A DNA stretch of 64,000 nt, from contig CBDCGV010000016.1 in NCBI GenBank assembly GCA_965216955.1, forward strand, positions 13,592 to 77,591, in the 5' to 3' direction. Position 1 is the stretch's first letter. Each line of letters starts with the position of its first letter. A program made the position numbers and the translations under genes. The notes below the pieces were generated by a model. It did not search any database. It was not told where the DNA came from and saw nothing but the letters and a program-made list of their open reading frames with translations. Origin of the DNA: Chitinophagales bacterium (GTDB lineage Bacteria; Bacteroidota; Bacteroidia; Chitinophagales; JADIYW01). Shown here one piece after another: positions 1,405 through 18,361 of this stretch.

Positions 1405-2967
1405 TTATAATTCTCCTCTTCTACTAACCAATTCCTCTTTAATTTTCCTAGCCCTATCTTCTGATAAGCTATAATTCCACATCACTACAATTGCTAAAAG
1501 TGCTGTTGCCGCAGGAATTGCAATATCTGCAATACGTAAATTAGTCATGGTTTCAATAGTTTGTGTTGGAGCATCAGATATAAAACCAACTAGCTTCAAA
1601 ACTAATCCACCTAGAACCAATGCCAAAGCTTGTCCCAGTTTTACCATCCACCAATAAATTGCACCAAAAGTTCCTTCTTTTCGGGGCATTCCGTTTTCTA
1701 ATTCATCCAAATCACACACATCAGCTGTCATACTCATCATTAATGTAAACAATCCTCCCAAACCAAATGCTATAAAAGGAATAGGAATAAAGATTAACCA
1801 TGGTATTCCATTGCTTGCATCTATACTAAACCAAGACATTCCTATGCTATTCAATACAGGGTCCAAAAAGTTAAATATTGAAGTAATCACTCCATTTAAA
1901 GATTGTCCTAATCCAGTTTGGTTAAACCTTTCATTTAAAGTATTATCAAACCCCCACCATTTCAGGACATAACCAATAATAGATATCAGAGTAGAAATTA
2001 TAAACGCTTTTCTTTTACCCCATTTATTAGACATCCATGATATGATAGGAATAACAATAAACGCGGTTAACACCGCAGTGATTGTTGAAAACCATGCCGG
2101 CCATGTTCCTGCATCAGCATAACTTCCGTTAAACATATAAAAGACAATGATATAAACACTAAAAGCAGCTACCATCTGAAAGCCATTAAAAACCAAAAAT
2201 GTTGCTCCACAAAGTCGCATAAATGGCTTATTCTTTGCTACTTGTGCTATACCACGAAAGAGGTCCATCAAATTAGAAGATAACGTTTTCAATGATATCT
2301 CCTTTCTGTTTTCCATATTAGCAGAATCAATTCCTCTACAAAAAATGGCCGGAAATATTCCCAAAACCATACACACTCCACCAACAATCATAGATAATTG
2401 TCTTACACCAACAGCCTGGTTTTCAAATATTTCAGGATCAGCAATTATCACCCAAAACCACGGTACTATCATCCAGGCTATTTGTCCCATAGTATTGGCA
2501 AAAGCCATTAAGCGTGTACGCTCATTGTAGTCAGAAGTCATTTCATACCCCAGACCTACCAATGGAGTTGCAAACATCGTATTCCCAATTAAAAACAACA
2601 GTGAGAAGACCAAGAAATACCAAAAATTATAGGTTTCAGAATTATGTTCATTCAATTGCCATAGCAAAATAAAAAGTATGCCACTTAAAATGGCCCCCAC
2701 AAAAATATAAGGTCTTCTTCTTCCCCATCTAGACTTTGTGTTATCAGAGATAAATCCCATAATAGGATCTGTTAACGCATCAAAGATGCGAGGAAGTCCA
2801 CCCAACAGGCCTGCTAAAAAAGGATCCATACCAAAAGCGGTCAACAAGAAGAAAGAAAAGAAACCTAGTGCCCCTGGTAATAAATTTAATACTAAATGGC
2901 CCGCTCCAAATGCTGCCTTCTGCCCTAATGGAACTCTGTAATCAGCCGATGTCTTGTATTTTGACAT
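1405..2967 (-). CDS. Glycoside-pentoside-hexuronide (GPH)/MFS-type sugar:cation symporter
   Basis: 520-aa polytopic membrane ORF. It has the GPH signature DPIMGFISDNTKSRWGRRRPYIFVGA and about 12 hydrophobic segments. It sits between glucanase genes. Confidence 0.8.
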   Translation of the reverse strand: MSKYKTSADYRVPLGQKAAFGAGHLVLNLLPGALGFFSFFLLTAFGMDPFLAGLLGGLPRIFDALTDPIMGFISDNTKSRWGRRRPYIFVGAILSGILFILLWQLNEHNSETYNFWYFLVFSLLFLIGNTMFATPLVGLGYEMTSDYNERTRLMAFANTMGQIAWMIVPWFWVIIADPEIFENQAVGVRQLSMIVGGVCMVLGIFPAIFCRGIDSANMENRKEISLKTLSSNLMDLFRGIAQVAKNKPFMRLCGATFLVFNGFQMVAAFSVYIIVFYMFNGSYADAGTWPAWFSTITAVLTAFIVIPIISWMSNKWGKRKAFIISTLISIIGYVLKWWGFDNTLNERFNQTGLGQSLNGVITSIFNFLDPVLNSIGMSWFSIDASNGIPWLIFIPIPFIAFGLGGLFTLMMSMTADVCDLDELENGMPRKEGTFGAIYWWMVKLGQALALVLGGLVLKLVGFISDAPTQTIETMTNLRIADIAIPAATALLAIVVMWNYSLSEDRARKIKEELVSRRGEL

Positions 2968-2970: not shown

Positions 2971-4464
2971 TTATTTTTTAAATGGTTTAATTACGATGGT
3001 TTGAATAGCTTGGGCTCCAATCTGAACGACTGTTGATTGTTGCAGTAGTGTTATTTCAAAATTCTTAGCTTTTTTATCTTGATTAAATACAACTATACTT
3101 ATTGAGTTATCAGGATTTTGAGCAGCTGTCACCATTAATGATTTATCAGAATAACTTGCATCAATCACTTGAGCACCTGGTCTAATGTACTTACTAAAAT
3201 GAGCCATAACATAGTACAACGGCGTAAAATAAACCTCGTCATTTACTTCGTCTACAATTACGGGAGCTACACACCAATTCTCAAACCAATTAGGCCCTCC
3301 TTGTTTATTCAGAACCATATTCCAATCTACCCATCCATCTACCCAATTATTCAAACAGCCAATAATATCTCTTGCATATCGGTTTACAGGAGCATATTTA
3401 GGATGTAAATATTTTTGATCTTCTGCAGCCCAGTCCCAGCCCCAATCGGTCGCCTCTTTACTCCAATACCAATCATCATCTTGCCATTTTGGAACTTCTG
3501 AATCAACGCAACCTTCTGTCTCTAATAAATATTTATCAGGGGCTTTGTTATGCGCATATTGTAATGCTTCAGGAAAAACTTCATAAGTACTTTCATACCA
3601 ATGAATCGCTGTTCCATCATAATATTTTGATGAAGCTTCATCTTTATACATTACATCAACCCATTCTTTTAAACCCGCTCGATTTTGATCATAACCCAAA
3701 ATTACAAGCTCTCCCTTTCCATCAGCCTCTAACTTAGGTCCTAGATGGTGTTGAACAAAATCTGTCATTTCTTCAGGAGTAAAATGCATACTTTCCCAGT
3801 TATCGCCATTGCCATGTGGCTCATTTTCCACTGTAAATCCCCAAAGATCAATACCCTCAGCTTTATATGCATCAACATATTTAGAAAAGAAAAGTGCCCA
3901 AGTATCATAGTATTTTGGAAGCAGTCTTCCACCTACCCAATGTTTATTATCTTTCATCCATGGCGGAGCTGTCCAAGGTGATGCAAAGATTTTAAACCCA
4001 TCCTCAGAGATAGCCATTGCATCTTTTATCATAGGTATAAGATCATCTAAATCCTCTTTTACAGAAAAATTCTCTAAAGTCATATCATCTTCTACCGGTG
4101 CATATGAATATTGACTCAAAGAAAAATCGCAAGAGTTCATATGTGTTCGTGTGAGAGAATAATTTGCCCCTTCTTTTCCGAAATATGCCTTTAAAATTTT
4201 ATCTCTATTTTTTTTGCTTAATCGGTTTAGTAGATATGCTGACGATTCTGTAAATGCTCCTCCAAACCCTGTAATGGTTTGATATTGTTTTTCAGGGGAT
4301 AATATAATTTTCGAAACATTTTCCGGATGTGAAAATTCGGAGACTGGAGTTAATTTATTCCCACTAATAGAAGTCTCATAAACCTCAACCTCTAAACTAT
4401 GTTCTTGAGAACAACTACTCATTATTAAAAAGACTATTAGAATTAAATAAATGTTTTGTTTCAT
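2971..4464 (-). CDS. Glycoside hydrolase family 30 lipoprotein (beta-1,6-glucanase/glucosylceramidase-like)
   Basis: 497 aa. Lipoprotein signal MKQNIYLILIVFLIMSSC. GH30-type motifs ITGFGGAFTESSAYLL, FTVENEPHG (acid/base) and LLETEGC (nucleophile). Confidence 0.8.
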   Translation of the reverse strand: MKQNIYLILIVFLIMSSCSQEHSLEVEVYETSISGNKLTPVSEFSHPENVSKIILSPEKQYQTITGFGGAFTESSAYLLNRLSKKNRDKILKAYFGKEGANYSLTRTHMNSCDFSLSQYSYAPVEDDMTLENFSVKEDLDDLIPMIKDAMAISEDGFKIFASPWTAPPWMKDNKHWVGGRLLPKYYDTWALFFSKYVDAYKAEGIDLWGFTVENEPHGNGDNWESMHFTPEEMTDFVQHHLGPKLEADGKGELVILGYDQNRAGLKEWVDVMYKDEASSKYYDGTAIHWYESTYEVFPEALQYAHNKAPDKYLLETEGCVDSEVPKWQDDDWYWSKEATDWGWDWAAEDQKYLHPKYAPVNRYARDIIGCLNNWVDGWVDWNMVLNKQGGPNWFENWCVAPVIVDEVNDEVYFTPLYYVMAHFSKYIRPGAQVIDASYSDKSLMVTAAQNPDNSISIVVFNQDKKAKNFEITLLQQSTVVQIGAQAIQTIVIKPFKK

Positions 4465-4473: not shown

Positions 4474-5772
4474 TTAATGTGCCACTACGATTTCCTGTTT
4501 TATTGGCGGAAGATCAACTATTTCTAACAACGTCTCCTTATCACCATCATAGGTTTTAGTAATAGTATTTCCATTTCGAGACAAATCATTAAACCGCCCT
4601 TCATCTACTAAATCCCAGAGCGCATACTTTGCTTTCCCATCCACAGTAAATAAACCAAAATGATTTTCAGAACCTTTATCGTTATGCGCATCCTTCCAAG
4701 GCTCATCAAAGGCTTCAAAATAAAAGCAAGAAATGCCTTCTTTATTAGTCCATTCACGCATTAATTGATAATATAACCCCTCTTTATATTCATCTGTAGC
4801 TTTAGAACCATGTGGTCCATAATGACCATTGGATACGGTTGCCCAACCTGTTTCTCCAATATGGACTGGCTTATCAACTCCTAAACTTTTCATGTAATCA
4901 GTAACCGCTTTGAATTGAGCTTTTGCAAAATCTCTTGCCCGAATCATTGCAGCATCTATTTTCTCAATATCTGAAAGGCCCTCCTCTTCGATATGAATAC
5001 CCCAGAAATCAGGATTGTAATGTGTGTTGTGATAAGGATAGGTATGCATTGATATATAGTCTACTGCTTTGATTAAAGCCTCTAAATCATCAACATGATA
5101 GCTGGTATCGCCCCCACCCCATGACGAAAAATCATCAGAGCTGGTAATCCATAAATCCTTTGAAAGTTTGCCAGACGCTTTAAGGTCTTGCAAATAATTT
5201 ACCCACTTCAATATCACATTCGGTTGCACGTAATAACTAGTGGCCCATTTAACCATTGCTTCGTTACCAACCGCAATAATTTTAACAATATCGGGATACT
5301 TATTTGCCAAAATTATCGCCCTCTCAATCTCGCCTGCATTTTGCTCATGCTCAATGTTATGATCAGGAGGATAATCAGACCAAGCATTCTTACAATCAAT
5401 CCAAGCTCCTAACATCATATACATTTCAAAATTACTATCCTCCTCTTTCAACTCACGAATTGCTTTTAACAAATTAGATGCCTGCGCTAATTGAACATTA
5501 TATGTTCGAATCAACTTAACGTTCATAGCATAAAGAATCTTCATATCTTCCTTTAGCTCTTCAATAGTTGGCTGAATATCACGCGTCTTCATGCGATATC
5601 CTCCATAAGAAATTGCCAAATAATCTGGATTGCCTAATATATCTTTAGCTGTCACCTCCTTTTTTGTTTGCTGATGTTGATTCGTTTCTCTCTTTGTCGA
5701 TTGATTGCTACAAGAAATACTAATTATCAGTAGCATCAAGCTTGAAATTAATATTTTAAATAATAGCTTCAC
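4474..5772 (-). CDS. Glycoside hydrolase family 17 lipoprotein (endo-beta-1,3-glucanase-like)
   Basis: 432 aa. Lipobox LLIISISCSN. Motifs IAVGNEAMVKW and VHIGETGWATVSNG. Paralogous to the 300-aa GH17 but carries an export signal. Confidence 0.8.
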   Translation of the reverse strand: MKLLFKILISSLMLLIISISCSNQSTKRETNQHQQTKKEVTAKDILGNPDYLAISYGGYRMKTRDIQPTIEELKEDMKILYAMNVKLIRTYNVQLAQASNLLKAIRELKEEDSNFEMYMMLGAWIDCKNAWSDYPPDHNIEHEQNAGEIERAIILANKYPDIVKIIAVGNEAMVKWATSYYVQPNVILKWVNYLQDLKASGKLSKDLWITSSDDFSSWGGGDTSYHVDDLEALIKAVDYISMHTYPYHNTHYNPDFWGIHIEEEGLSDIEKIDAAMIRARDFAKAQFKAVTDYMKSLGVDKPVHIGETGWATVSNGHYGPHGSKATDEYKEGLYYQLMREWTNKEGISCFYFEAFDEPWKDAHNDKGSENHFGLFTVDGKAKYALWDLVDEGRFNDLSRNGNTITKTYDGDKETLLEIVDLPPIKQEIVVAH

Positions 5773-5773: not shown

Positions 5774-8700
5774 TTATTTCAATTCTGATTCCATAATATG
5801 AACAATTATCTTAAGTACTTGACCTGTTCTTTCAAAAATTTGACTACTCGTTGTTGCATCTAAGCTCAAAGTTTCAAGCTTAGCCGTTGTCCCATTTTCT
5901 TTTATCACCTCTAAACTATTCTTCGAAGCAATCTTATAAACTATTGGCACTTGACAATATGTAAAACATAGGGTGCCTTTTTCTAAGCCCAACTGCTTAA
6001 TAACACCATGTACATTTACATATTCTAAAACTTTTGTTTCTTCTAAAAACTCATCTTTTCTTAGTAGGCAAGGATTAAAATACAATTGACCTGCTGCTAC
6101 AAAAGCCCCTAATTCGCCAAACCTACATAGTATATCTTCTTTCACCTGTCCAGTCATCCCAGGTTGTTGAGCTCCCTTTCCAGCTGGAGTATGGGAATAT
6201 GGATCTGTTGGAAAGGCACCATAAAGAGACGGTGACTTATGTACACCGATACCTTCATTAATTTCATAGTAATGCTCTAACAACTTACCAACAATTACCG
6301 CATCCTCTCCATGCCTTATTGCACTCAAACAGCATTCTTGCACAGCCAATTGCAATTTGGAAACCATATGCCAATAAATAGACCCTAGACCCTCATATCC
6401 AAAAAAAGTTCCTGACCTCCCAGTAAAAGCTTTATGATTGAATACTTCTTCATAAACCTCTAAGATTCGTCCCTTTTCTTCAGATATTAATTTGCCATAC
6501 CTATTTTGATCCAACAATTTCAGTGTTTTTTGCAGGTCATTGGCATTTTTAAAATTACTATTAAAGTGGTAAGTACCTTGAATATCCTTTTCAATGATCT
6601 GACTATTCCCGTCTTCAACTAACTGCTTCAATAATACAGATTCTAAAATCAATTCTATTGGCACATTATTTTTCTTTAAAAACCGAGGCAAATCCTTATT
6701 TGGATAAAGTAAATAACTATACTGATCATCTCTAAAAAGAGCGCTACTCTTCAATGCATCAAGCACTTCTAAAGACTGTTTTGCGGTTAAATATCCCGAA
6801 CTTAAAACTGCAACCTGTCCCTCCAGCATTTCACTTAGATATGAAATAGATATTTTATTCTCACTTTTAATAGACATTAAATTATAAGCATGATACAAAT
6901 TATCCTGTCTCTTATTAGCTCTAATAGTGTGTTCCATATACTTGAGGCTAACATTAATGAAACGTTTCAATCCTTTTGCAGATATGGTTCTTTTCTCCCC
7001 CCAGAAATTCTGTTTATAAATATGTTGTCTATAATCACTCGCCGCTTGTCCTAGACCATCCAAAATAAGTTTACGGTTTTCATCACTTATAGCTTCGGAC
7101 AAAAGACTTTCGTGATTATCGAAAACTTCTCGGCATCGTTTATAAAAAATTATAAGTTCATTAGACAACTCAAATCTTTCAATTTCTGACTTCTCTAAAA
7201 GTTCTCCAAAGAATTTCAAAAACCGCCTTAGATAACAAAGTGTAACAACAGAAACGCCATTCCCTACTAGTGCATTATTGGCATCATTCCACTCTGGACG
7301 TTGCGTATTCATCCAAATACCTCCTTCAGGAATATAATTGGACAACTTAATTAATAGAGTAACTAATATTTTTTCAATGAAATTTACTGTATATATAGAC
7401 TGGTTCTCATCTCTAAGTAAGGTTGCGTCTGCACCTATAATTTCTTTTTCTTGTCGTAACTGACGATCTAAATCATAATCAAACTCAATAGTATCCTTTG
7501 AGTCGATAAGAATATCTTCATAACCTTTAATTTTATAGGGAATATTTGCATAAACAAAATCCTTCTTATCGAAATAGCTTAATAGTTTTCCGGGATGATG
7601 TTTTTCTGCAAACTCCAAAAATTTCAATAAATAAATAATCTGATGATCTCCCCAGTAACCAATATAAGACCAAGGGTTATCAGGTTCTATAGATTCCCAA
7701 TCAAAACCATCTTTTGTAACTCTATAAGGATTATACCCATCAAAAGTAGAAGCATTTAAAAATTTATAGATCATGCTTTCTATGAATTCAGGGTATGAAT
7801 GTGCCAATGCTTCCCAATTTTGGAAAATATCTCGCCAATTCCCCTCATAATCCAAGAGTTTTGACCCATCATTTTTGCGCATATTGATAGAGAACTTATT
7901 CCATGGCCTGCTGGGATCACCATGTCTTCTACTAAACTTCAATGGCATATACTCCATACATAACCTTCTGAAGGCAGCATCTTCACTTTGTTCAGCTATT
8001 GCTCTCAATTTTGTTATAGAAAACAAATCAGGAAGCTTTTCAACTTCATGAATAAACTTTTCAAACACCTCTTTATTCGCTCTTAAGAGATAATTTTCGA
8101 CATCCCATTTTTCTACTTGGTAGTTAAAATCAAAAACTCCACCCCTCATAATGTTGAATAAGACATTTGAAAAATGCCTAGTATCACGAAGATTATCAGA
8201 AGTCAATTGAAGTCCATCAGCAGCGGCATTTAGTTGCACTAAACGCTTTGAGCCTAACTGAATATCTTCTATAACAAGTTGCACCAAATTTTCTTCAACT
8301 TGGATCGTATTCAAAAGTTTAGCTATTGAAGCATGATTCTTATTTACATCTGCAACAATCATCCATTCCTTTTTTCCATTAGGAGGAAGCATAATATCGG
8401 CATTGATAAAATAAGCCCCTTTTTCTCCTTTAATATCTTCTTCTTCATGAAGTGATTGTCCTTTTCTAAATCTTTTTAACTGTGATGATGAAAGCAGGTG
8501 AATCACTTTTGACAACCCTAAGGACCAAACCACATTGGCCTTTAATGCCTCGCTTGGTTCTGCTCTATCTACAATTATTGCACTTAATGAGAATATTCCT
8601 AAACCACTATCTTTTATCAATTCACTTCGTTTATAGGCATCCACTAGATTGCTATATTGATTCTGCAAATCGCTTCCCACACTAGAAGGTATAATATTTT

Positions 8701-9229
8701 GAATACCATCTAAAACCGATAATCGTATTTCATTTTGAGTGTTATTTATGATTTCTGATTTTTTTACAAAACCAAAGGCATCACTTGAATTCCAGGAATA
8801 TCGAAACGCTATCCCTAAATCATGGTTAATTTCTTCGAAAAGAACTTTATTGCCATAAATACTTTTATAAAGGTTTCTGCTAATCTCATACCTCCCTTCA
8901 CATCTTATAGAAAAAGGCTCCCAAACATGTAATCTATTGTCTTCTCTTACTTGTATGATTGTCTTACTACCGGTATTCTCTGCAGATTCAGTAATCTTAT
9001 CATCGGTATAATATGGGAATAAAGCGCTTTCCGCATTCTTTCTCCCTGCACTTAAACCTCCATTACTTGATATAAACATCCAGTGGTTTCCATCACTTAC
9101 CACATTCATAAAAAAAGGACGAAGCAGATCACTATTTGAAATTTTATAGAATCTTTCTTCTCCAATTAATACGTCATTAATTTCAATATTAGATGTTTCC
9201 AAATCCGGCATCAATGAAAAAGTATACAT
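5774..9229 (-). CDS. Large cytoplasmic protein, candidate GH94/GH149-type beta-1,3-glucan phosphorylase
   Basis: 1151 aa with no signal peptide and a 1-bp gap to the downstream GH17. The segment NTQRPEWNDANNALVGNG resembles the W-N-D catalytic-loop motif I recall from GH94-clan phosphorylases. The call rests on size, locus context and that motif only. Confidence 0.5.
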   Translation of the reverse strand: MYTFSLMPDLETSNIEINDVLIGEERFYKISNSDLLRPFFMNVVSDGNHWMFISSNGGLSAGRKNAESALFPYYTDDKITESAENTGSKTIIQVREDNRLHVWEPFSIRCEGRYEISRNLYKSIYGNKVLFEEINHDLGIAFRYSWNSSDAFGFVKKSEIINNTQNEIRLSVLDGIQNIIPSSVGSDLQNQYSNLVDAYKRSELIKDSGLGIFSLSAIIVDRAEPSEALKANVVWSLGLSKVIHLLSSSQLKRFRKGQSLHEEEDIKGEKGAYFINADIMLPPNGKKEWMIVADVNKNHASIAKLLNTIQVEENLVQLVIEDIQLGSKRLVQLNAAADGLQLTSDNLRDTRHFSNVLFNIMRGGVFDFNYQVEKWDVENYLLRANKEVFEKFIHEVEKLPDLFSITKLRAIAEQSEDAAFRRLCMEYMPLKFSRRHGDPSRPWNKFSINMRKNDGSKLLDYEGNWRDIFQNWEALAHSYPEFIESMIYKFLNASTFDGYNPYRVTKDGFDWESIEPDNPWSYIGYWGDHQIIYLLKFLEFAEKHHPGKLLSYFDKKDFVYANIPYKIKGYEDILIDSKDTIEFDYDLDRQLRQEKEIIGADATLLRDENQSIYTVNFIEKILVTLLIKLSNYIPEGGIWMNTQRPEWNDANNALVGNGVSVVTLCYLRRFLKFFGELLEKSEIERFELSNELIIFYKRCREVFDNHESLLSEAISDENRKLILDGLGQAASDYRQHIYKQNFWGEKRTISAKGLKRFINVSLKYMEHTIRANKRQDNLYHAYNLMSIKSENKISISYLSEMLEGQVAVLSSGYLTAKQSLEVLDALKSSALFRDDQYSYLLYPNKDLPRFLKKNNVPIELILESVLLKQLVEDGNSQIIEKDIQGTYHFNSNFKNANDLQKTLKLLDQNRYGKLISEEKGRILEVYEEVFNHKAFTGRSGTFFGYEGLGSIYWHMVSKLQLAVQECCLSAIRHGEDAVIVGKLLEHYYEINEGIGVHKSPSLYGAFPTDPYSHTPAGKGAQQPGMTGQVKEDILCRFGELGAFVAAGQLYFNPCLLRKDEFLEETKVLEYVNVHGVIKQLGLEKGTLCFTYCQVPIVYKIASKNSLEVIKENGTTAKLETLSLDATTSSQIFERTGQVLKIIVHIMESELK

Positions 9230-9235: not shown

Positions 9236-10063
9236 TTACTGATACACCCTCACCCAATCTACAAGCATAGTTTGAGGGAATACGGTTTGACCATTTGGAC
9301 TTCCTACAAAAGTACCTCCTACGGCAAGATTAAGAATGATGTAAAAAGGATGATCATATACCCATTCTCCAGACACCGCAGTTACATCGCTTGGAGTAAT
9401 TTGTTGGTATAAAAAGTCGTCAACAAAAAAACTGATATAATCAGTGCCCCACTCAATGGCAAATACGTGAAAATCTAGATCAAATCTGTCATTTACCAAT
9501 GTATATTCTTTGGTTATCGCATCTCCGGCAAAATGACCAGGACCATGAATAGAACCACTATTAACGTTAGGTACCTGCCCTCTATATTCCATAATATCAA
9601 TTTCCCCACATTGTGGCCAACCCACTTCATCAATATTCGCTCCTAACAACCAAAAAGCTGGCCAAATTCCCTGTCCCCATGGCAATTTAATTCGCGCTTC
9701 AAAACGGCCATATGCTTGCTCAAATACCCCCTGGGTTTTTATTCTTGCAGAGGTATATGATGCCCCCAGATAGCTTTCGTTTACAGCTCTAATTGCTAAA
9801 TTACCTTCACCATCTAATGAAACGTTTTCTGCACGATCTGTATAGTATTGAAATTCCTGGTTGCCCCATCCATCTTCACCTCTTCCAATATCGTAATTCC
9901 ACTTAGTAGAATCAACAAGTGCTCCCGCTTCTCCTTCAAAATCATCTTCCCAAACCAGTTGCCAATTATTGTCTTTGACTCTATCATCTTCTTGACATGC
10001 AGAAATAGCAATTAACAATGCGCACATTATCAAGCTGTTCGTTAATATTTTCATTTTTATCAT
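9236..10063 (-). CDS. Glycoside hydrolase family 16 laminarinase-type lipoprotein
   Basis: 275 aa. Lipobox LLIAISACQEDD, with an acidic stretch after the Cys consistent with surface export. Catalytic ExDxxE motif GEIDIMEY, plus WPAFWLLG. Confidence 0.85.
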   Translation of the reverse strand: MIKMKILTNSLIMCALLIAISACQEDDRVKDNNWQLVWEDDFEGEAGALVDSTKWNYDIGRGEDGWGNQEFQYYTDRAENVSLDGEGNLAIRAVNESYLGASYTSARIKTQGVFEQAYGRFEARIKLPWGQGIWPAFWLLGANIDEVGWPQCGEIDIMEYRGQVPNVNSGSIHGPGHFAGDAITKEYTLVNDRFDLDFHVFAIEWGTDYISFFVDDFLYQQITPSDVTAVSGEWVYDHPFYIILNLAVGGTFVGSPNGQTVFPQTMLVDWVRVYQ

Positions 10064-10391: not shown

Positions 10392-13300
10392 TCAAAATTT
10401 GACGGAAAAAATGTGAAAAATACCTGAATACCAAGCGGCCCCAGATACTTTGTTAAATTGATACACTTTATCCGTCGTATTAATCCCTGTCTTATTAGGA
10501 TTTTCTGCTGGAAACCCTGTTACACCATCACCATCTTCAAACACTCCCGATAAATTCTCACAGTTCTCAAAATCAATTGGGAAAGTCGTCAAATTAGGAG
10601 CTTGTGGTGTAGAACATCCTCCAGAACTTGAAGTTTTATAGAAATAGATATTGTCTATCCAGATATTTGATGGATTCGTGCCTCCTTGTCCATCAAATTT
10701 TAATTGTAAAATATCTCCAAAAGATACACCTGTGAAATCTGAAAGTGGAATATCATAGCTGTTCCATTCGCCAGAAGTAATTGGCGTCAGGTTTACTAAA
10801 AACTCCCCTGTACTTGCACTTATTGGTGTGAACTTAATATCCGTCGCATCAGCCGTCCATACATCGATATGTACAAACTCCATCGAAGACATATCTTCAT
10901 TACCCGTAAACTGGGTTCCCTGATAATTAAAGTTATCGTACTTCAACGTATTGTTACCTGAAACACTCACCTGACTTGCTGATCCTGATTGTCCCCAATT
11001 TGGATTAAAGTCCGATACATTTATATCTGTATAGGCATCACTAAATACAGAGATTACATCTGCTGCGTCTCGTGTTGGTGTTGGTGCTGCTGTTGTTGGC
11101 TCTGTTGCCGAACTTGGCTCCTTATAAAAGTAGATATTGTCTATCCAGATATTTGATGGATTCGTACCTCCTTGTCCATCAAATTTTAATTGTAAAATAT
11201 CTCCAAAAGATACACCTGTGAAATCTGAAAGTGGAATATCATAGCTGTTCCATTCGCCAGAAGTAATTGGCGTCAGGTTTACTAAAAATTCCCCTGTGCT
11301 TGCACTTATTGGTGTGAACTTAATATCCGTCGCATCAGCCGTCCATACATCGATATGTACAAACTCCATCGAGGACATATCTTCATTACCCGTAAACTGG
11401 GTTCCCTGATAATTAAAGTTATCATACTTCAACGTATTGTTACCTGAAACACTCACCTGACTTGCTGATCCTGATTGTCCCCAATTTGGATTAAAGTCCG
11501 ACACATTTATATCTGTATAGGCGTCACTAAATACAGAGATCACATCTGCTGCGTCTCGTGTTGGTGTTGGTGCTGCTGTTGTTGGCTCTGTTGCCGAACT
11601 TGGCTCCTTATAAAAGTAGATATTGTCTATCCAGATATTTGATGGATTCGTACCTCCTTGTCCATCAAATTTTAATTGTAAAATATCTCCAAAAGATACA
11701 CCTGTGAAATCTGAAAGTGGAATATCATAGCTGTTCCATTCGCCAGAAGTAATTGGCGTCAGGTTTACTAAAAACTCCCCTGTACTTGCACTTATTGGTG
11801 TGAACTTAATATCCGTCGCATCAGCCGTCCATACATCGATATGTACAAACTCCATCGAGGACATATCTTCATTACCCGTAAACTGGGTTCCCTGATAATT
11901 AAAGTTATCATACTTCAACGTATTGTTACCTGAAACACTCACCTGACTTGCTGATCCTGATTGTCCCCAATTTGGATCCGACACATTTATATCTGTATAG
12001 GCATCACTAAATACAGAGATCACATCTGCTGCGTCTCGTGTTGGTGTTGGTGCTGCTGTTGTTGGCTCTGTTGCCGAACTTGGCTCCTTATAAAAGTAGA
12101 TATTGTCTATCCAGATATTTGATGGATTCGTGCCTCCTTGTCCATCAAATTTTAATTGTAAAATATCTCCAAAAGATACACCTGTGAAATCTGAAAGTGG
12201 AATATCATAGCTGTTCCATTCGCCAGAAGTAATTGGCGTCAGGTTTACTAAAAATTCCCCTGTGCTTGCACTTATTGGTGTGAACTTAATATCCGTCGCA
12301 TCAGCCGTCCATACATCGATATGTACAAACTCCATCGAGGACATATCTTCATTACCCGTAAACTGAGTTCCCTGATAATTAAAGTTATCGTACTTCAACG
12401 TATTGTTACCTGAAACACTCACCTGACTTGCTGATCCTGATTGTCCCCAATTTGGATTAAAGTCCGACACATTTATATCTGTATAGGCATCACTAAATAC
12501 AGAGATCACATCTGCTGCGTCTCGTGTTGGTGTTGGTGCTGCTGTTGTTGGCTCTGTTGGTGTTGAACCTCCTGTTGTAAGCTCAATATCATCAATGTAA
12601 TAAATAGAACCATCAGCAGGTCCATTATCCTCATCATCAGGAATAATGACAATTTTATCATATTCTATTGGTCCAGTTAACGCATCACCAGAAAAATCAA
12701 AGGTTAACTCTGTCCATGTATTTGCAGTTGCAACGGTTTGCGTTTTATTGAAAGTAGCGATTGGTCCTTGATTCCCTTCTTTTTCAATTTGAAATCTTAC
12801 AATCACATTTGCTTTTGGTGACCAAATCTTCATTTTAAAGACTTTGTTGGTCGTCATGTCAAAATTTGACGGAAAAATGTGAAATAGACCAGAATACCAT
12901 GCCGCTCCAGAAACTTTATTTAATTGATACACTTTATCTGATGTATTAATCCCTGTCTTATCAGGATTCTCTATTGGTGCACCTGTTACTCCATCTCCTG
13001 ATTCAAACACTCCAGAAAGATCCTCACAATTCTCAAAATCAATTGGTAAAGATGTCAAACTTGGACTTTGAGGTGTAGAACAATCTCCACCTGTACTTGA
13101 AGTTTTATAGAAATAAATATTATCTATCCAGATGTTAGATGGATTGGTTCCCCCTTGTCCATCAAATTTTAATTGACCTACTTGACTAAAATCTACATCA
13201 GTAAATTCCGATAGTGGAATATCATAACTTACCCATTGTCCTGAAGTAATTGGCGTTAAACCAACCAATGTTTCGCCGTCTCCGATAGGTGTGAATTTTA

Positions 13301-14987
13301 CATCTGTGGCATCAGTCGTCCACATATCAATATGTACAAACTCCATATCTGACAAGTCTTCATTACCTGTAAACTGAGTACCTTGATAATTGAAATTGTC
13401 ATATTTCAAAGTATTGTTACCATCTACACTGACCTGACTTGCTGCACCTGATTGCCCCCAGTTAGGATTAAAATCTGATACACCAATATTTGTATATGCA
13501 TCACTAAATACAGAAATCACATCTGCCGCATCACGTGTTGGTGTAGGTGCCGCTTCTGTCGGTCCATTATTACCTACATCTTCATTTCCTATATAGAAGT
13601 AAATGTTATCTACAAAAACATTTGGTATATCTCCAGACAATACTATTAGCGCTAATTTTGTTTTTGTACTTGGTAGTGGAATATCTAAGCTTACCCATTC
13701 TCCCGTCTCCAAAGCCGGACTCATAAAAGTAGTTTCAGAAACGATATCATCGCCACCACCTATAGCTCCATCTGGACCTGCATCAAATACTTCAATCTTA
13801 AACTGCTTACCAGCGGTTTCGTCCGGTGTCCAAATATCCATATGTAAATGTGTCATTTCAGAAGCATCTACTGTAGGATTGGCAAATTGAATACCTACAA
13901 AATTGAGCAACTTATACCTTATCATATCGTCTCCATCGACTTGTGGATAATCCTCTACCGTAGTAGAACCATCACCTGTCCAATATCCATTAAAGAAATC
14001 TACCGGTACATTGTTATAAACATTACTATACAAAGAAATTACACTATCGGAATTAACAGTTGGCACAGGAGCTGTTGGCGGTAATATAGCCTCTCCTGTT
14101 GACACAATAGCTAATGACCCCACAGCATCAACATCTCCCATTTTGGCTGTTATTACTGCAGTACCTGCATCAAGTACCATTGCTACACCTAGGCTACTAA
14201 CCGTAGCAACAGATGTTTCAGAAGATGTGAATGTCAAATACGAAGGTGAAATTTCGACCAATTGTTCGATGTCGTCTAATAGACTAACTGTTAAAATCAA
14301 TTCTTCAACAGTTATATTCTGACCTGTTTCAGCACTTACTGTATCATTTCTTTTTCCTTGAATACCAGCTTCATAGTGTGCCAATGTACCTAAACTTTCA
14401 AATTGAACTTCATCAACCCAAAAGGAATATCCTGCTCCATTGTCATTTAAAGTTCCATCTGAAAAAAAGAATAATCCTTTTTCTTGAATAAGTTTAGATG
14501 GATCTGGAATTGGAATAATCACTTTTTCCCATGCAGTGCTAACTTTCAAATCCTTTAAAGTCACCCTATATTCAGAATCCCCCTCACCAAACTCATCACC
14601 AAATCCTAATTGATCTATTGTAGCAGATTGAGAAGCTCTTACCCAAAAAGTAAGTGCATTAAACCCTGACAAATCACGTCCATCCGCCACATAAAAAGCA
14701 CCCCCAGCATAATTACCGGTTGGATCATCTGGATTTGGAACATCAAACCTCATTGACGCCTCGCCATCATAAACAATATCATTATCCACCTGAAAAGCCG
14801 TTAATTTTGATCCTCCATAGGCACCATACTCTAAACCGCTACTAAATCCATCAATAAACACTTCTCCGTTGGTAGAGAAAGTTGCAGGATCTAAGTCATC
14901 AAAATCTCTTTTACAACTAATAATGACAGATGACAAGATAAATGTCATTAATAGAATAGTTACCGAAAAACTTCTTTTATTCCTCAT
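10392..14987 (-). CDS. Multi-module surface glycan-binding lipoprotein (CBM-like jelly-roll modules plus a Big_2-like Ig domain), truncated by a frameshift
   Basis: 1531 aa. Lipobox SSVIISCKRDFDDLD. Repeated modules of about 160 aa end in NPSNIWIDNIYFYK, and two modules of about 150 aa end in YYIDDI(E/M)LT. PT-rich linkers join them. The position after GH16 matches the SGBP slot of a PUL. Confidence 0.7.
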   Translation of the reverse strand: MRNKRSFSVTILLMTFILSSVIISCKRDFDDLDPATFSTNGEVFIDGFSSGLEYGAYGGSKLTAFQVDNDIVYDGEASMRFDVPNPDDPTGNYAGGAFYVADGRDLSGFNALTFWVRASQSATIDQLGFGDEFGEGDSEYRVTLKDLKVSTAWEKVIIPIPDPSKLIQEKGLFFFSDGTLNDNGAGYSFWVDEVQFESLGTLAHYEAGIQGKRNDTVSAETGQNITVEELILTVSLLDDIEQLVEISPSYLTFTSSETSVATVSSLGVAMVLDAGTAVITAKMGDVDAVGSLAIVSTGEAILPPTAPVPTVNSDSVISLYSNVYNNVPVDFFNGYWTGDGSTTVEDYPQVDGDDMIRYKLLNFVGIQFANPTVDASEMTHLHMDIWTPDETAGKQFKIEVFDAGPDGAIGGGDDIVSETTFMSPALETGEWVSLDIPLPSTKTKLALIVLSGDIPNVFVDNIYFYIGNEDVGNNGPTEAAPTPTRDAADVISVFSDAYTNIGVSDFNPNWGQSGAASQVSVDGNNTLKYDNFNYQGTQFTGNEDLSDMEFVHIDMWTTDATDVKFTPIGDGETLVGLTPITSGQWVSYDIPLSEFTDVDFSQVGQLKFDGQGGTNPSNIWIDNIYFYKTSSTGGDCSTPQSPSLTSLPIDFENCEDLSGVFESGDGVTGAPIENPDKTGINTSDKVYQLNKVSGAAWYSGLFHIFPSNFDMTTNKVFKMKIWSPKANVIVRFQIEKEGNQGPIATFNKTQTVATANTWTELTFDFSGDALTGPIEYDKIVIIPDDEDNGPADGSIYYIDDIELTTGGSTPTEPTTAAPTPTRDAADVISVFSDAYTDINVSDFNPNWGQSGSASQVSVSGNNTLKYDNFNYQGTQFTGNEDMSSMEFVHIDVWTADATDIKFTPISASTGEFLVNLTPITSGEWNSYDIPLSDFTGVSFGDILQLKFDGQGGTNPSNIWIDNIYFYKEPSSATEPTTAAPTPTRDAADVISVFSDAYTDINVSDPNWGQSGSASQVSVSGNNTLKYDNFNYQGTQFTGNEDMSSMEFVHIDVWTADATDIKFTPISASTGEFLVNLTPITSGEWNSYDIPLSDFTGVSFGDILQLKFDGQGGTNPSNIWIDNIYFYKEPSSATEPTTAAPTPTRDAADVISVFSDAYTDINVSDFNPNWGQSGSASQVSVSGNNTLKYDNFNYQGTQFTGNEDMSSMEFVHIDVWTADATDIKFTPISASTGEFLVNLTPITSGEWNSYDIPLSDFTGVSFGDILQLKFDGQGGTNPSNIWIDNIYFYKEPSSATEPTTAAPTPTRDAADVISVFSDAYTDINVSDFNPNWGQSGSASQVSVSGNNTLKYDNFNYQGTQFTGNEDMSSMEFVHIDVWTADATDIKFTPISASTGEFLVNLTPITSGEWNSYDIPLSDFTGVSFGDILQLKFDGQGGTNPSNIWIDNIYFYKTSSSGGCSTPQAPNLTTFPIDFENCENLSGVFEDGDGVTGFPAENPNKTGINTTDKVYQFNKVSGAAWYSGIFHIFSVKF
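10630..12565 (-). repeat. Four near-identical in-frame tandem repeats (486, 486, 480 and 486 bp) encoding a CBM-like module
   Basis: The landmark gatattgtctatccagat recurs at 10647, 11133, 11619 and 12099, spaced 486, 486 and 480 bp. One unit carries a 6-bp deletion near 11975 (SDPNWG versus SDFNPNWG). Confidence 0.9.
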
Positions 14988-15019: not shown

Positions 15020-18000
15020 TTATTTACCTATACTGAATTGGAAATATGTTCTGATTTCCCATTCTCTTCCATTATCAAACCCAATTGCATCAGGATCGCA
15101 TACCACAGCACCCGTTGCATCTACTTGTTGTGTAGGACAATATCTAGGTGAATACTGATTCAGAGATCTCCATGTATAACTTATTCCAATTCTTGTATCT
15201 GGCTTAATAAACCACGATGGTTTACCTACCGTTGTAGACAAATCAAACTTTAATTGTACAGGGAAAGTTTGATTAAAATCTCGATGGTAATCGTAAGGCC
15301 CCCAATCATTTACTTTAACGCTAGAAATTAACTTAGCCTTTTTATATATCATTCTTAAGTCTGTTCCGAATCGCTTAATTAATCGCTCATCGCTTCCATT
15401 TGACTGTCCATTTCCTCCATATATGTTTGCAATAAATCCAAAGTCTGGACTTATTTTAGAAACAATGCGTGTATTGACTTCCCATAAATCTTCTGCCGGT
15501 GGTGCTCCCGAAAATGGAAAGTTTCCACCATCTGCAAAGGTTCCTATAGCGGCATCTTGCGTAGTAGGATGATGTTTAAATACCACCCCTGCACTCATTG
15601 CAAACTTCGCATCTTCTGCTTCATCATTATTCCATTCATACATCCATGTAGCAGGTGTAGGATCGAAAGTGATTAATAATTCTCCACCAATCGTTTCTCT
15701 ATTACTTCTAACAACGAAAGGATCATCTAAAATATTTCTTGCTCTTCCAGGAGCCGCAACATCTCCAGAAATTGGACCTACAACTGGTTTTTGCCATAAG
15801 AAGTTAGGTGCAATTTGGAAATTTCCAAACCCTAATGTAAACCCTGTTAAAAAGTTATATTGATTTCCACTACCACTGTCTTTCAATCTCCAACCTGTAA
15901 AAGTCTGGGTATAATCACCGCCTCCATTGGCTACTAACCCCATGGCAGCACCTTGCATATACCAGTTAAACATACCTTTTGAGAAAGTAAATTTCCCCTT
16001 AATACCAAAGGCATCCTTAGCTTCAATTTCATCTTGGTACACCGTTCCATCTGAATCATCTACAATTTGGAAGCTTCTACCAACTAAAGGCTGGCCTCCC
16101 CAAATACCACCAAGCTCGATACCTACGGGTCCGAATTCTCTTTCGGCATGCAATGTTAATCGTCTTGTTTTAGGAGCAGGAATACTAAAAGATCGTTGAT
16201 TATCACCATTTTGTGTTCCAATATCCTCATGAAAAATTGCAGTTAACTGCGTCTTTTTAATATGTCTAGAATACTTTAAGAGTAATGCTGGATTTGCTCC
16301 CCACCATAATTCAGGTCCTATTGCAGCTTTTAATCCTTTTGCTTTTTTCTTTCCTTCAATTTCGATTCCGATTGGAGCATTGCCATTATAGATATCTAAA
16401 TTCGGTCCATAATTCGCTTCTGGATACAATCCAAAAAAGTCTCCTTCATACCCCCAATGATAATGTCCTACTCGATAAAACCCTTTTAAGTCAAAATATT
16501 TGTGGTTCCAACTAAACTCTGCATTGTATACCTGAAAACGCTTAACATCTTCTAATTCTGTAGTACCATTAGGTGTCGAAACGGTTACAGGAAGCCCTCT
16601 ATTTTCATAAAATATTTCATTGATCGGATTATTAGGAATATTACCTAAAACATTAAAATTCACACTAGCTCTAACATTTGGTGTAGGCATAGCCTCTACT
16701 CCAAAATAAAAAGATTGTAAGTGGTCAAATCCAACTTCATCTCGATCATTTTCATCAGATATCTCAATATTTTTACCTCCTGTGTTAATTGTTGCCATAT
16801 CAATTCTCAAATCACTCATACGCACCTTACTGCCTTTTTCACCAGTTAAAGCAGCTTTATCTCCTCTTGCTCTCAGTACTGCATCTGCCAATTGAATATT
16901 AGAAAAATAATTATTTATATATGCTAGTGAAGCTCCTTCTGCATATGGATTTAATCTATGTGCCTCTTTCAAAGCGTAATAGGCCGCTCGAGGATACAAT
17001 TGATATATTCCTCGCGCATCTGTTTCACCTTTAGCACAAACGCCAAACCACTCTTCATTCATATTATTTTCTCCTTCCGAATAGTCATTTCGGTATCCCC
17101 CATTACTCCAAGAGGCATTATTATCGTGAACACTTAGATTTTTAGTTTGTCCGTATTTCCACCAGCCATCACTAAATTGAAAAGTAAAACCTCCTAAAGA
17201 ATTACCTGTCTTTCCTAAGCCAGCAGCATTTTCATAAATTTCCTTCCAATTCTCAACCATATAGAATGCCTGAGCTTGTTGATCTTCTGAATTAGATATG
17301 GCGTTAAAAGCATCCGCACCAAATTCTGTAAAAAGAATAGGCTTATTCAACTCCTCTTTTACTTTCTGAAAAGCATCTCCAAAAGATGATCCACGATACA
17401 TATTGGTACCAAATATGTCAATGTCTTTACATTCTTCTTTGATAATATCTAGGAACAACAAATCACCATTACAAATTGCAACCGGGTGATTTTTGTCAAT
17501 GGCTTTCATTTCTACCACAGCTTCATTGAATAATTTATACATGTGGCGTGCTCTTATTGTAGATTTTCTATCCTCAATAGGAATATCTTCCGTTTCTGCC
17601 CCTCCCCAGAAAAGGCCATAATTATTTTCATTACCCAATAAATAAAGAAGCAATCCAGGTGTACCTTTATAAGATTCAGCCATCTGCTTTACTTCAGAAA
17701 TCAATAATTCCTTTGCACGTGGATCAGAATATTCGGTATTACCAACCCAGCTTCCAGATAAAGTCAAACCATAACGACCAAATGAATGGTTAAGCATGGT
17801 ATATATTCCATATTTTTCGTAAATATATTTTATCCATTTTGCAGGAACACCAGTGTATACTCTAATTGCATTGACGCCCATATTTTTCAATAAAGACATT
17901 TCAGCATCAAGAGCCGCTCTAATAACATCATCAGACTGTTTCCACAAACTATAATTGTAATTGGTTCCAATGGGAAAGTAATCCCAATTCATACCATTAA

Positions 18001-18181
18001 CCATAAAATCGTCGCCATTCACGACCAATTTCATACCTGATTCATTATTTACAATAGCTACCTCATTGGTTTGTGCCATCCCAACAGTAACTAAAAAAGA
18101 GAAAATAATGCTTAGAAAAGTATTTCGTACCATATTCATATTTATATTAAGGTTTAACAACGAGACTGTCCTTTTGTTCAT
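15020..18181 (-). CDS. Secreted clan GH-A (beta/alpha)8 glycosidase domain fused to a roughly 600-aa putative outer-membrane beta-barrel
   Basis: 1053 aa with a signal peptide (..FLVTVGMAQ). It has LLGNENNYG (acid/base Glu) and PILFTEFGAD (nucleophile Glu). The C-terminal half is Gly/aromatic-rich with alternating-polarity strands and ends REWEIRTYFQFSIGK. The start may instead be one of the internal Mets at 18139 or 18133. Confidence 0.55.
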   Translation of the reverse strand: MNKRTVSLLNLNINMNMVRNTFLSIIFSFLVTVGMAQTNEVAIVNNESGMKLVVNGDDFMVNGMNWDYFPIGTNYNYSLWKQSDDVIRAALDAEMSLLKNMGVNAIRVYTGVPAKWIKYIYEKYGIYTMLNHSFGRYGLTLSGSWVGNTEYSDPRAKELLISEVKQMAESYKGTPGLLLYLLGNENNYGLFWGGAETEDIPIEDRKSTIRARHMYKLFNEAVVEMKAIDKNHPVAICNGDLLFLDIIKEECKDIDIFGTNMYRGSSFGDAFQKVKEELNKPILFTEFGADAFNAISNSEDQQAQAFYMVENWKEIYENAAGLGKTGNSLGGFTFQFSDGWWKYGQTKNLSVHDNNASWSNGGYRNDYSEGENNMNEEWFGVCAKGETDARGIYQLYPRAAYYALKEAHRLNPYAEGASLAYINNYFSNIQLADAVLRARGDKAALTGEKGSKVRMSDLRIDMATINTGGKNIEISDENDRDEVGFDHLQSFYFGVEAMPTPNVRASVNFNVLGNIPNNPINEIFYENRGLPVTVSTPNGTTELEDVKRFQVYNAEFSWNHKYFDLKGFYRVGHYHWGYEGDFFGLYPEANYGPNLDIYNGNAPIGIEIEGKKKAKGLKAAIGPELWWGANPALLLKYSRHIKKTQLTAIFHEDIGTQNGDNQRSFSIPAPKTRRLTLHAEREFGPVGIELGGIWGGQPLVGRSFQIVDDSDGTVYQDEIEAKDAFGIKGKFTFSKGMFNWYMQGAAMGLVANGGGDYTQTFTGWRLKDSGSGNQYNFLTGFTLGFGNFQIAPNFLWQKPVVGPISGDVAAPGRARNILDDPFVVRSNRETIGGELLITFDPTPATWMYEWNNDEAEDAKFAMSAGVVFKHHPTTQDAAIGTFADGGNFPFSGAPPAEDLWEVNTRIVSKISPDFGFIANIYGGNGQSNGSDERLIKRFGTDLRMIYKKAKLISSVKVNDWGPYDYHRDFNQTFPVQLKFDLSTTVGKPSWFIKPDTRIGISYTWRSLNQYSPRYCPTQQVDATGAVVCDPDAIGFDNGREWEIRTYFQFSIGK

Positions 18182-18270
18182 TTTTTGTTAAGACAGCGTT
18201 AAGGTATGGTTTCCACAACAATAAGACATTACGATTACACTTCACAAACAGATAATTCAACAGCATTTTA

Positions 18271-18320
18271 ACTCACACTGCTTTTAACCACCTACTCATT
18301 TACTACTCAAAGACTACTCA
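18271..18320 (+). promoter_or_regulatory. Phased ACTCA/TACTCA direct repeats in the divergent control region (candidate operator)
   Basis: TACTCA occurs at 18293, 18304 and 18315, exactly 11 bp apart, and ACTCA occurs at 18271. The motifs lie 40-90 bp upstream of the regulator ATG at 18362. Confidence 0.3.
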
Positions 18321-18361
18321 CTTCTGGTTTTTTCTCCTAACTTTAGGAATAATACGTAACT

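Follow-up and report, generated by a model that had tools for sequence, protein, structure and literature searches.

The 64,000-nucleotide stretch of the Chitinophagales bacterium contig CBDCGV010000016.1 analyzed in this work (hereafter the window, meaning the whole stretch) harbors a gene coding for a 1053-residue protein in which a glycoside hydrolase (GH) domain resembling family GH158 precedes about 600 residues that appear to form a large outer-membrane (OM) β-barrel of an undescribed family. This gene, here referred to as the GH-barrel gene, belongs to a locus for the utilization of laminarin, a β-1,3-glucan, and no SusC/SusD pair was found among the window ORFs that were scanned. The same architecture and gene order recur throughout the Bacteroidota. 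On this basis we suggest, with somewhat more conviction than doubt, that the protein is a TonB-independent channel for laminarin oligosaccharides bearing a tethered periplasmic glucanase.

Four independent lines of evidence, i.e., an AlphaFold2 (AF2) model, fold matches, strand topology, and the features of homologous proteins, argue strongly for the idea that the C-terminal ~600 residues are a large integral OM β-barrel, as a preliminary description of this DNA had proposed. The barrel was modeled from an alignment (A2) of 87 sequences comprising stand-alone homologues as well as fusions both from Bacteroidota and from other phyla (23–71% identity to the query), which yielded a single domain with a mean predicted local distance difference test (pLDDT) value of 87.9 and a predicted template modeling (pTM) score of 0.85; for the barrel, this model replaced the full-length one built from 68 close homologues, whose quality is moderate (pLDDT 69.6). 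The comparison of the barrel model with 350,542 PDB chains by Foldseek returned 337 matches at E ≤ 1e-3; the best 50 of them are all OM barrels (probability 1.00, TM-score 0.3–0.4), and neither a β-sandwich nor a carbohydrate-binding module (CBM) is found among these 50. The matches include BtuB, FepA/PfeA, Cir, OprC, ZnuD, PirA, ChuA, and a Bacteroides thetaiotaomicron B12 transporter, as well as Occ/OprD porins, chitoporin, MOMP, OmpF-type porins, LptD, and the FimD usher. TM-scores of 0.3–0.4 imply that the barrel is no close copy of any of them.

The predicted secondary structure consists of 24 long amphipathic antiparallel strands arranged in one continuous meander devoid of internal repeats. 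Eight of the 11 odd-numbered connections (T1, T2, T4–T7, T9, and T10) are two to three residues long and the even-numbered ones span 7–36 residues, the alternation of short turns and long loops being the pattern of outer-membrane proteins (OMPs). The C-terminal residue is Phe in all the 30 stand-alone homologues and Phe or Tyr in 33 of the 38 fusions from outside the Bacteroidota; the protein of the window and its Bacteroidota clade end in ...F-S-I-G-K, that is, the last strand is kept and a two-residue tail is added. The barrel domain matches nothing in Pfam, even at E ≤ 10, nor in NCBIfam, and both single-sequence and profile searches found no relative among PDB sequences. Thus, neither a soluble β-sandwich/CBM array nor a known non-membrane family, the two outcomes that the preliminary description had set against a barrel, emerged from the fold matches and from Pfam.

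The open reading frame (ORF) starts with ATG on the minus strand, and the plus-strand frame over the same positions is full of stop codons. Its product begins with a signal peptide of the signal peptidase I type, with a likely cleavage at ...VGMAQ|TNE and no lipobox Cys; the true start may be Met15 or Met17. The inspection of the N-terminus and the Pfam scan revealed neither a lipoprotein signal nor a type IX secretion system (T9SS) signal. Residues 17–35, with a Kyte–Doolittle hydropathy of 1.58, are the sole hydrophobic helix of the protein, the next-best 19-residue window reaching 0.89, in agreement with the earlier claim that the C-terminal ~600 residues are free of hydrophobic helices. 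All the peptides quoted in that description were located in the translation: LLGNENNYG at residues 181–189, PILFTEFGAD at 281–290, the alternating-polarity segments RLTLHAEREFGPVGIELGGIWGG (674–696), YNFLTGFTLGFGNFQIAPNFLW (775–796), and TRIGISYTWRSL (996–1007), and the C-terminus REWEIRTYFQFSIGK (1039–1053). The C-terminal half had also been described as rich in Gly, Tyr, Trp, and Phe; this holds for Gly (11.1%) and Phe (6.7%), with Trp at 2.4%, but not for Tyr, which accounts for just 3.9% (6.9% in the enzyme domain).

The barrel is not a TonB-dependent transporter (TBDT). Indeed, the Plug, TonB_dep_Rec, and CarboxypepD_reg models gave no match in the GH-barrel protein at E ≤ 10, and the same models strongly match the genuine SusC proteins that we found in four related loci (see below). 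Since neither a plug nor a TonB box is present, and since the stand-alone homologues begin directly at strand 1, the barrel is predicted to be TonB-independent, as previously suggested. When the barrel of the window (15023–16825) is compared with those of loci L008–L087, its identity is 61–70% across Saprospirales, Flavobacteriales, Bacteroidales, Chitinophagales, and Balneolales; such a high value is unusual for an OM protein and suggests either a strong constraint or the lateral transfer of the locus.

Concerning the N-terminal domain, the assignment to clan GH-A made from two sequence motifs was borne out by the two invariant glutamates and by the fold and profile matches to GH158. Glu185 and Glu286, the predicted acid/base and nucleophile, lie 101 residues apart and are invariant in the 56 fused proteins (56/56) of the diverse alignment, which belong to several phyla. 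The AF2 model of this domain exhibits alternating strand/helix units, as in a (β/α)8 barrel, and a Foldseek search with the full-length model retrieved as best match BuGH158 (6pal, 6.8e-12), together with GH158(Pro) (9p26/9oro) and the GH157 structure 9fz9, GH2 glucuronidases ranking behind. Similarly, a profile of 87 diverse family members matched 6pal (1.8e-6) and 9oro (1e-5) in the PDB ahead of GH2 β-galactosidases (8e-3), and aligned Glu185 (GNE) and Glu286 (TEFG) with the catalytic motifs of GH158 and GH2 structures; a single-sequence search reached 9oro at E 0.015. The matches to GH158 structures cover about 140–190 residues at 12–17% identity, a level at which family membership is not established; the domain is thus best regarded as a predicted retaining glycosidase of clan GH-A, remotely GH158-like. 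Its activity on β-1,3-glucan is suggested by the conserved laminarin context of its gene. Membership in GH2 was considered and rejected: the only Pfam match of the enzyme domain is a partial Glyco_hydro_2_C one (residues 90–299, 1.7e-6, 27.9 bits), the score of the NCBIfam β-galactosidase model is 30 bits (cutoff 1284), the GH2 N-terminal and immunoglobulin (Ig)-like domains were not found by Pfam, and GH158 outranks GH2 in both profile and fold searches. In public databases, the fusion proteins are annotated either as "GH2 TIM barrel-domain containing protein" or simply as "glycosidase" or "hypothetical protein".

In the window, the GH-barrel gene heads a co-directional run of seven further genes, in agreement with its earlier description as the first gene of an operon, adjacent to a multi-CBM lipoprotein, and lies between the latter, which resembles a surface glycan-binding protein (SGBP), and a divergent gene coding for a BguR-type regulator. 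This is the slot held by SusC/SusD in canonical laminarin polysaccharide utilization loci (PULs), so that the preliminary description was right on this point too. BguR is a one-component β-glucan regulator presented in a 2026 preprint, and in Formosa agariphila its gene is located directly upstream of a SusCD pair (10.64898/2026.01.10.698779). The scan of 30 window ORFs with 120 residues or more (36 are listed) revealed no SusC, SusD, or TonB-dependent receptor, and the locus would be termed, by the usual definition that requires a susC/susD pair, a carbohydrate-active enzyme (CAZyme) cluster rather than a canonical PUL. Bacteroidota lipoproteins destined for surface export typically show acidic residues immediately behind the lipidated Cys; on this basis, both the 1531-residue repeat lipoprotein and the GH16 lipoprotein of the locus are predicted to lie on the cell surface.

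The fusion is widespread. More than 5,600 matches to the full-length architecture were found in a protein collection clustered at 90%, the best 120 of which are all about 1045 residues long and 67–73% identical; a search with the barrel alone retrieved 494 representatives at 50% clustering, mostly the same fusion and in some cases stand-alone barrels, and in some barrel homologues further modules, such as CBM_4_9 (P0235), are present at the N-terminus. When a single genome per species was scanned, the barrel family was detected in at least 597 genomes. The hosts include the cultured Flavilitoribacter nigricans, Chryseobacterium aquaticum, Cloacibacterium rupense, Flavobacterium terrisoli, F. 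degerlachei, and Thalassobellus sediminis, and metagenome-assembled genomes (MAGs) assigned to Balneola, Aureispira, Haliscomenobacter, Lewinella, Marinilabiliaceae, Lentimicrobium, Chitinophagaceae, and Bacteroidales, with many Saprospiria and Chitinophagales. In the 80 loci fetched, the triad formed by the GH-barrel gene, the homologue of the 1531-residue lipoprotein, and GH16 keeps its order wherever the flank exists (80/80), and is usually followed by GH149, GH17, GH30, and a major facilitator superfamily (MFS) transporter, as also seen in independent gene calls; in most of them the fetched flanks also contain a BguR homologue by the GH-barrel gene. The number of full-length homologues and the gene order kept in all the 80 loci imply that the fusion is not due to chance. 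In three loci (L019, L046, and L074, around 8700–11900) the GH domain and the barrel are called as separate adjacent ORFs, which might be due to a frameshift or to an incorrect assembly, or else reflect a truly split gene.

A SusC/SusD pair, verified by Pfam, is located near the triad in just four of the 80 loci, belonging to two Flavobacteriia genomes (Thalassobellus sediminis and Flavobacterium sp.), a Flavobacteriales MAG, and a Bacteroidales MAG; a lone TBDT-like ORF occurs in three more, and at least 73 of the 80 loci contain no other OM transporter. Two of the four (L043 and L061) share the arrangement SusC, SusD, lipoprotein homologue, small ORF, GH-barrel, lipoprotein homologue, and GH16, preceded by BguR in L043, which means that the same kind of lipoprotein comes after both SusD and the GH-barrel. 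As for the idea that this protein represents an alternative to the Sus system, it holds for most loci, but the four loci carrying both reveal that the two are not mutually exclusive.

The barrel is also found without its enzyme. Stand-alone homologues of 575–600 residues, each with its own signal peptide directly followed by strand 1, occur in Gammaproteobacteria, in loci that contain GH16; in Marinobacterium and in a marine metagenome contig, the barrel gene is located between LacI plus an Opp-type ATP-binding cassette (ABC) importer and GH16. These stand-alone loci contain neither a fused enzyme nor a homologue of the lipoprotein, and no GH149 gene was seen in the two listed in Table 1. One might speculate that the stand-alone barrel is the OM component noted as missing from the "Type I" ABC clusters in the paper on GH149. 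Moreover, fusions were detected in Chromatiales, Leucothrix, Desulfuromonadaceae, and Cloacimonadota, as well as in Rhodothermales. Two contigs bearing non-Bacteroidota fusions harbor nearby GH16, GH30, MFS, or a homologue sharing 41% identity with the GH149 of the window, and no TBDT was seen in these two loci. There, the fusion gene is directly followed by a gene for a lipoprotein of ~207 residues; the two proteins share 35% identity, look helix-rich, match no Pfam domain, and show no BLAST similarity to the multidomain lipoprotein of Saprospiria. They may represent a different partner for the barrel. Overall, the barrel is associated with β-1,3-glucan catabolism in several phyla, whether or not the enzyme is fused to it, and a TBDT is nearly always absent.

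The best-conserved parts of the barrel are not its strands but some of its connections, namely residues 570–631, 840–859, and 961–971. The conservation of residues 570–631 in the A2 alignment is 0.64–0.83 across phyla, and that of the connection T8, which is predicted to lie on the periplasmic side, extends to the stand-alone barrels. Such a conservation is unusual for surface loops and suggests that these connections line or constrict the lumen, residues 570–631 being a candidate constriction or substrate site. If the 24 strands are assumed to be 4.4 Å apart and tilted by 40 degrees, a geometric estimate puts the C-alpha radius at about 22 Å, which would be too small to host a TIM barrel of ~390 residues as a plug and too large to stay open; this is in keeping with a lumen partly filled by conserved loops.

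The side of the membrane on which the enzyme resides can be approached from the topology of the barrel. The N-end of strand 1 and the C-end of strand 24 are both on the short-turn side of the strand map, which is periplasmic in every characterized OMP. Because of this position of the termini, because the barrel is conserved without the enzyme in the stand-alone homologues, because a surface-type GH16 lipoprotein is already encoded in the locus, and because the GH-barrel protein has neither a lipoprotein nor a T9SS signal, we consider it likely that the fused glucanase is placed at the periplasmic mouth of the modeled barrel, and its display on the surface somewhat unlikely. Hence the earlier proposal that laminarin is cleaved at the surface by this enzyme does not appear probable, in view of the termini and of the GH16 lipoprotein of the locus.

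If these considerations are correct, the following scheme might be proposed. The GH-barrel protein would be exported through Sec, and its C-terminal ~600 residues would be inserted in the OM as a monomeric plug-less barrel acting as a TonB-independent channel specific for β-1,3-glucans, with the long conserved loops 570–631, 799–829, and 961–971 probably folded into the lumen, thus narrowing and lining the pore. The GH158-like domain, presumably a retaining endo-β-1,3-glucanase, would hang from strand 1 through the short helical linker, which is missing from the stand-alone barrels, most likely in the periplasm. At the surface, the multi-repeat lipoprotein would catch laminarin and the GH16 lipoprotein would nick it; glucan chains or oligosaccharides might then pass into the barrel, and the tethered glucanase might cut them as they emerge, preventing their back-diffusion and keeping an inward gradient. 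GH17 and GH30 would trim and debranch the oligosaccharides, the MFS symporter would import them across the inner membrane, GH149 would phosphorolyze them in the cytoplasm, and the BguR-type regulator would control the whole locus. A bolder version, which we regard as rather doubtful, is that of a self-contained import machine devoid of energy coupling: the wide channel would admit whole or large laminarin chains, and a processive GH158-type glucanase at its periplasmic mouth would pull and trap them, as a Brownian ratchet driven by the cleavage of glycosidic bonds instead of TonB and the proton-motive force. Hundreds of Bacteroidota species would then be capable of "selfish" polysaccharide uptake in which SusC/SusD play no part, and the barrel by itself would be the missing OM laminarin channel of the gammaproteobacterial loci.

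Some findings weigh against the channel with a periplasmic enzyme. The co-occurrence with SusCD in four of the 80 loci indicates that the system can complement the Sus uptake rather than replace it. The order N-terminal passenger, helix, and C-terminal barrel is also that of type Va autotransporters, and the characterized BuGH158 is a surface enzyme. In addition, the orientation of the enzyme is fixed neither by the full-length model, given its moderate quality, nor by the analysis of specificity-determining positions for enzyme docking, which gave nine strand, eight loop, and no turn positions. These last three points are compatible with an alternative in which the barrel is still a channel but the GH domain is exposed outside like the passenger of an autotransporter, the linker helix running back through the pore and the products diffusing in. 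We consider this alternative unlikely: besides the absence of export signals and the presence of the surface-type GH16 lipoprotein, a single helix would leave the lumen of a 24-strand barrel unfilled, the barrel has about 24 strands and not 12, and its conservation without a passenger in equivalent loci does not fit a dedicated translocator. Type V secretion is rare in Bacteroidota, whose surface proteins normally reach the surface via lipoprotein export or T9SS. A classical type Va autotransporter was rejected altogether, in view of the ~24 strands over 600 residues and of the existence of the barrel without any passenger.

Different roles for the C-terminal domain can also be envisaged. It might simply hold the glucanase at the inner face of the OM, or organize the lipoprotein and GH16 into a utilisome-like complex, the oligosaccharides entering through general porins or through SusC/SusD encoded elsewhere; the constant adjacency of the barrel, lipoprotein, and GH16 genes and the presence of SusC/SusD in four loci are in agreement with this idea. 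Nevertheless, a barrel of 600 residues and ~24 strands, with conserved loops and 61–70% identity across Bacteroidota orders, goes far beyond the needs of an anchor, is retained as a stand-alone protein in gammaproteobacterial β-glucan loci with neither enzyme nor lipoprotein to be organized, and lacks any other OM transporter beside it in at least 73 of the 80 loci, all of which renders this role quite improbable. Much less credit is due to the possibility of a soluble array of β-sandwiches or CBMs, as in an ordinary periplasmic or secreted multidomain glucanase. Even though the domain is all-β and without Pfam matches, and laminarin loci often code for proteins with several CBMs, the 50 best fold matches, the continuous meander with its OMP-like turn/loop alternation and no repeats, the β-signal Phe that ends the homologues, and the modeling of the domain as a single unit all point to the membrane. 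Finally, there are well-known secretion porins that bear periplasmic domains at their N-terminus, as well as periplasmic hydrolases associated with such porins, and one may ask whether the barrel exports a self-made β-glucan like BcsC, PgaA, or AlgE, the fused hydrolase acting as BcsZ or PgaB do. This seems even less probable: the neighborhood is purely catabolic (GH16, GH17, GH30, GH149 phosphorylase, sugar importers, and BguR or LacI regulator), and no glycosyltransferase or synthase was seen in the loci with annotated neighbors.

The channel with a tethered periplasmic glucanase, which we favor, can be compared with several known systems. As in the SusC/SusD importers of Bacteroidota PULs, some of which form utilisome complexes with an SGBP and a surface GH, an OM β-barrel is encoded by the first structural gene beside a BguR-type regulator, in a laminarin locus where the genes for an SGBP-like lipoprotein and a surface GH16 come next; unlike them, the GH-barrel protein shares no sequence similarity with SusC, lacks the plug, the CarboxypepD_reg extension, the TonB box, and a SusD partner, has about 24 strands (22 in SusC) and a covalently bound enzyme, and would be presumably passive rather than energized. 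With the LamB/ScrY, ChiP, CymA, KdgM, and OprB porins it would share the nature of a TonB-independent OM channel encoded within the catabolic locus of its own oligosaccharide. However, the barrel is roughly twice their size (about 600 residues and 24 strands vs. 12–18 strands), is fused to a glycosidase in most lineages, and matches no Pfam or NCBIfam porin family, the resemblance being limited to the generic fold. By analogy, it might work as a substrate-specific porin occupying the SusC/SusD slot and bearing a covalently attached enzyme. Compared with the GH158 enzymes BuGH158 (6pal) and GH158(Pro) (9oro/9p26), the N-terminal domain exhibits the same clan GH-A TIM barrel, aligned GNE and TE(F/W)G motifs, and the same kind of locus; in contrast, the eight-stranded Ig-like C-terminal domain of GH158 is replaced by a helix and the ~600-residue barrel, and the identity is about 12–17%.

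In concept, the GH-barrel protein comes closest to the "transporter-CAZyme fusion" MFS-GH17 encoded by laminarin PULs of Formosa, which was argued to couple transport and hydrolysis (Unfried et al. 2018, PMC6246565). In both cases a transporter would be covalently joined to a β-1,3-glucanase of the laminarin pathway; the Formosa protein, however, combines an α-helical inner-membrane transporter with GH17, whereas the GH-barrel protein combines an OM β-barrel with a GH158-like domain. Two of the loci (L018 and L059) contain the Formosa-type fusion downstream of the triad, where a single ORF, the last one, matches the cytoplasmic GH17 as well as the MFS transporter; in the window, the two are encoded by separate genes (483–2967), 19 bp apart. 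A soluble N-terminal domain followed by a C-terminal barrel is also found in the 24-strand ushers FimD/PapC, LptD, PgaA, BcsC, and type Va autotransporters such as EstA, and the conserved insertion between strands 5 and 8 appears to be placed similarly to the usher plug. Unlike these proteins, which export pili, lipopolysaccharide, or exopolysaccharide or display a passenger, the GH-barrel protein is found in a context of nutrient import, and its barrel is far larger than the 12-strand one of autotransporters.

We found no description of the barrel or of the fusion in the literature searched on architecture and context, which is not proof of absence; papers on laminarin loci name GH158 or "GH2" genes and SusCD-less "CAZyme clusters", none reporting a barrel on such a protein. 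What would be new is, therefore, a glycan-specific OM uptake channel formed by an undescribed barrel family and fused to an enzyme. Laminarin represents one of the largest oceanic carbon fluxes, and its uptake is at present explained and quantified, in metaproteomics and metatranscriptomics, almost entirely via SusC/SusD and other TBDTs. The GH-barrel protein is the sole OM component in more than 90% of the loci examined, which are classed as SusCD-less "CAZyme clusters", and might thus represent a widespread and unrecognized bacterial route of laminarin uptake. If the barrel is indeed a channel, surveys based on SusC/D markers overlook a major route; the protein would be the first enzyme-porin fusion for nutrient import, an OM counterpart of the MFS-GH17 fusion, and the cultured hosts would offer a tractable system to ask whether hydrolysis can replace TonB energy in glycan import.

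The features of the window and of the related loci are reported in Table 1.

Table 1. Position and basis of the features discussed in the text. Positions without a locus label refer to the window; those preceded by L001–L071 refer to the corresponding locus.
Feature	Position	Strand	Basis or remarks
GH-barrel gene (signal peptide, GH158-like glucanase domain, linker, and OM barrel)	15020..18181	-	ORF list, translation, homologues
Signal peptide, residues 1–37 (hydrophobic core 17–35)	18071..18181	-	Sequence inspection, hydropathy
Predicted clan GH-A (β/α)8 catalytic domain, GH158-like, residues 38–430	16892..18070	-	Pfam, Foldseek, profile vs PDB
Glu185 in LLGNENNYG, predicted acid/base	17627..17629	-	Aligned with GNE in the two solved GH158 enzymes
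Glu286 in LFTEFGAD, predicted nucleophile	17324..17326	-	Aligned with TEWG/TEFG of GH158 structures
Linker, residues 431–452 (helix 431–449 just before strand 1)	16826..16891	-	AF2 secondary structure, both models
Predicted OM β-barrel, residues 453–1053, about 24 strands, plug-less	15023..16825	-	AF2, fold matches, turn/loop pattern, homologue β-signal
Most conserved barrel segment, residues 570–631: loop L3 HYHWGYEGDFFG..., short strands S6–S7, loop L4 LWWGANP	16289..16474	-	A2 conservation
20-residue connection T8 (DPTPATWMYEWNNDEAEDAK), residues 840–859, predicted periplasmic side	15605..15664	-	Conservation 0.76
1531-residue lipoprotein, SGBP-like partner (Cys25, then KRDFDD)	10392..14987	-	N-terminus, repeat analysis
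GH16 lipoprotein (Cys, then QEDD), probable surface endo-laminarinase	9236..10063	-	Pfam GH16 1.5e-22, N-terminus
GH149 β-1,3-glucan phosphorylase, without signal peptide	5774..9229	-	NCBIfam NF058639, 1783 bits vs cutoff 1150
GH17 lipoprotein, no acidic residues after Cys	4474..5772	-	Pfam, N-terminus
GH30 lipoprotein, likely β-1,6 debranching	2971..4464	-	Pfam 1.1e-79; NCBIfam endo-1,6-beta-glucanase below cutoff
MFS/GPH inner-membrane sugar symporter	1405..2967	-	Pfam, NCBIfam
GH17 without signal peptide (cytoplasmic)	483..1385	-	Pfam, N-terminus
BguR-type regulator: Reg_prop/Y_Y_Y sensor and GerE helix-turn-helix	18362..21241	+	Pfam; architecture as in 10.64898/2026.01.10.698779
Divergent promoter region, regulator/GH-barrel gene	18182..18361	.	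Sequence inspection
SusC/SusD pairs near the triad	L043 703-5190; L061 352-4887; L069 1072-5421; L071 16428-20962		Pfam
Stand-alone barrels	L001 10001-11734; L002 10001-11767		Order Opp-type ABC importer, LacI, barrel, GH16
~207-residue lipoprotein directly after the fusion gene	L003 13003-13629; L004 13120-13743		Non-Bacteroidota loci

The 1531-residue lipoprotein is composed of at least six modules of ~160 residues, including three near-identical tandem copies that share about 78% identity with the last repeat. Neither a Pfam domain above threshold nor a relative among PDB sequences was found for this protein, which is likened to the published laminarin-binding Cf-SGBP by its similar architecture. 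The BguR-type regulator of the window has no kinase or receiver domains. In the promoter region that it shares with the GH-barrel gene, three direct GAGTAG repeats, 11 bp apart (~18292–18325), might represent an operator; the triple repeat was not found upstream of the orthologous genes of the 87 fetched loci. The source organism has a GC content of 35%, and its closest relatives are Saprospiraceae. Two other groups of genes are unrelated to the laminarin locus: positions 25091–45117 code for proteins with T9SS C-terminal sorting domains (a 2450-residue Ig-rich protein, FG-GAP/ASPIC proteins, and β-propellers), and a GH76 gene is located at 40620–41774.

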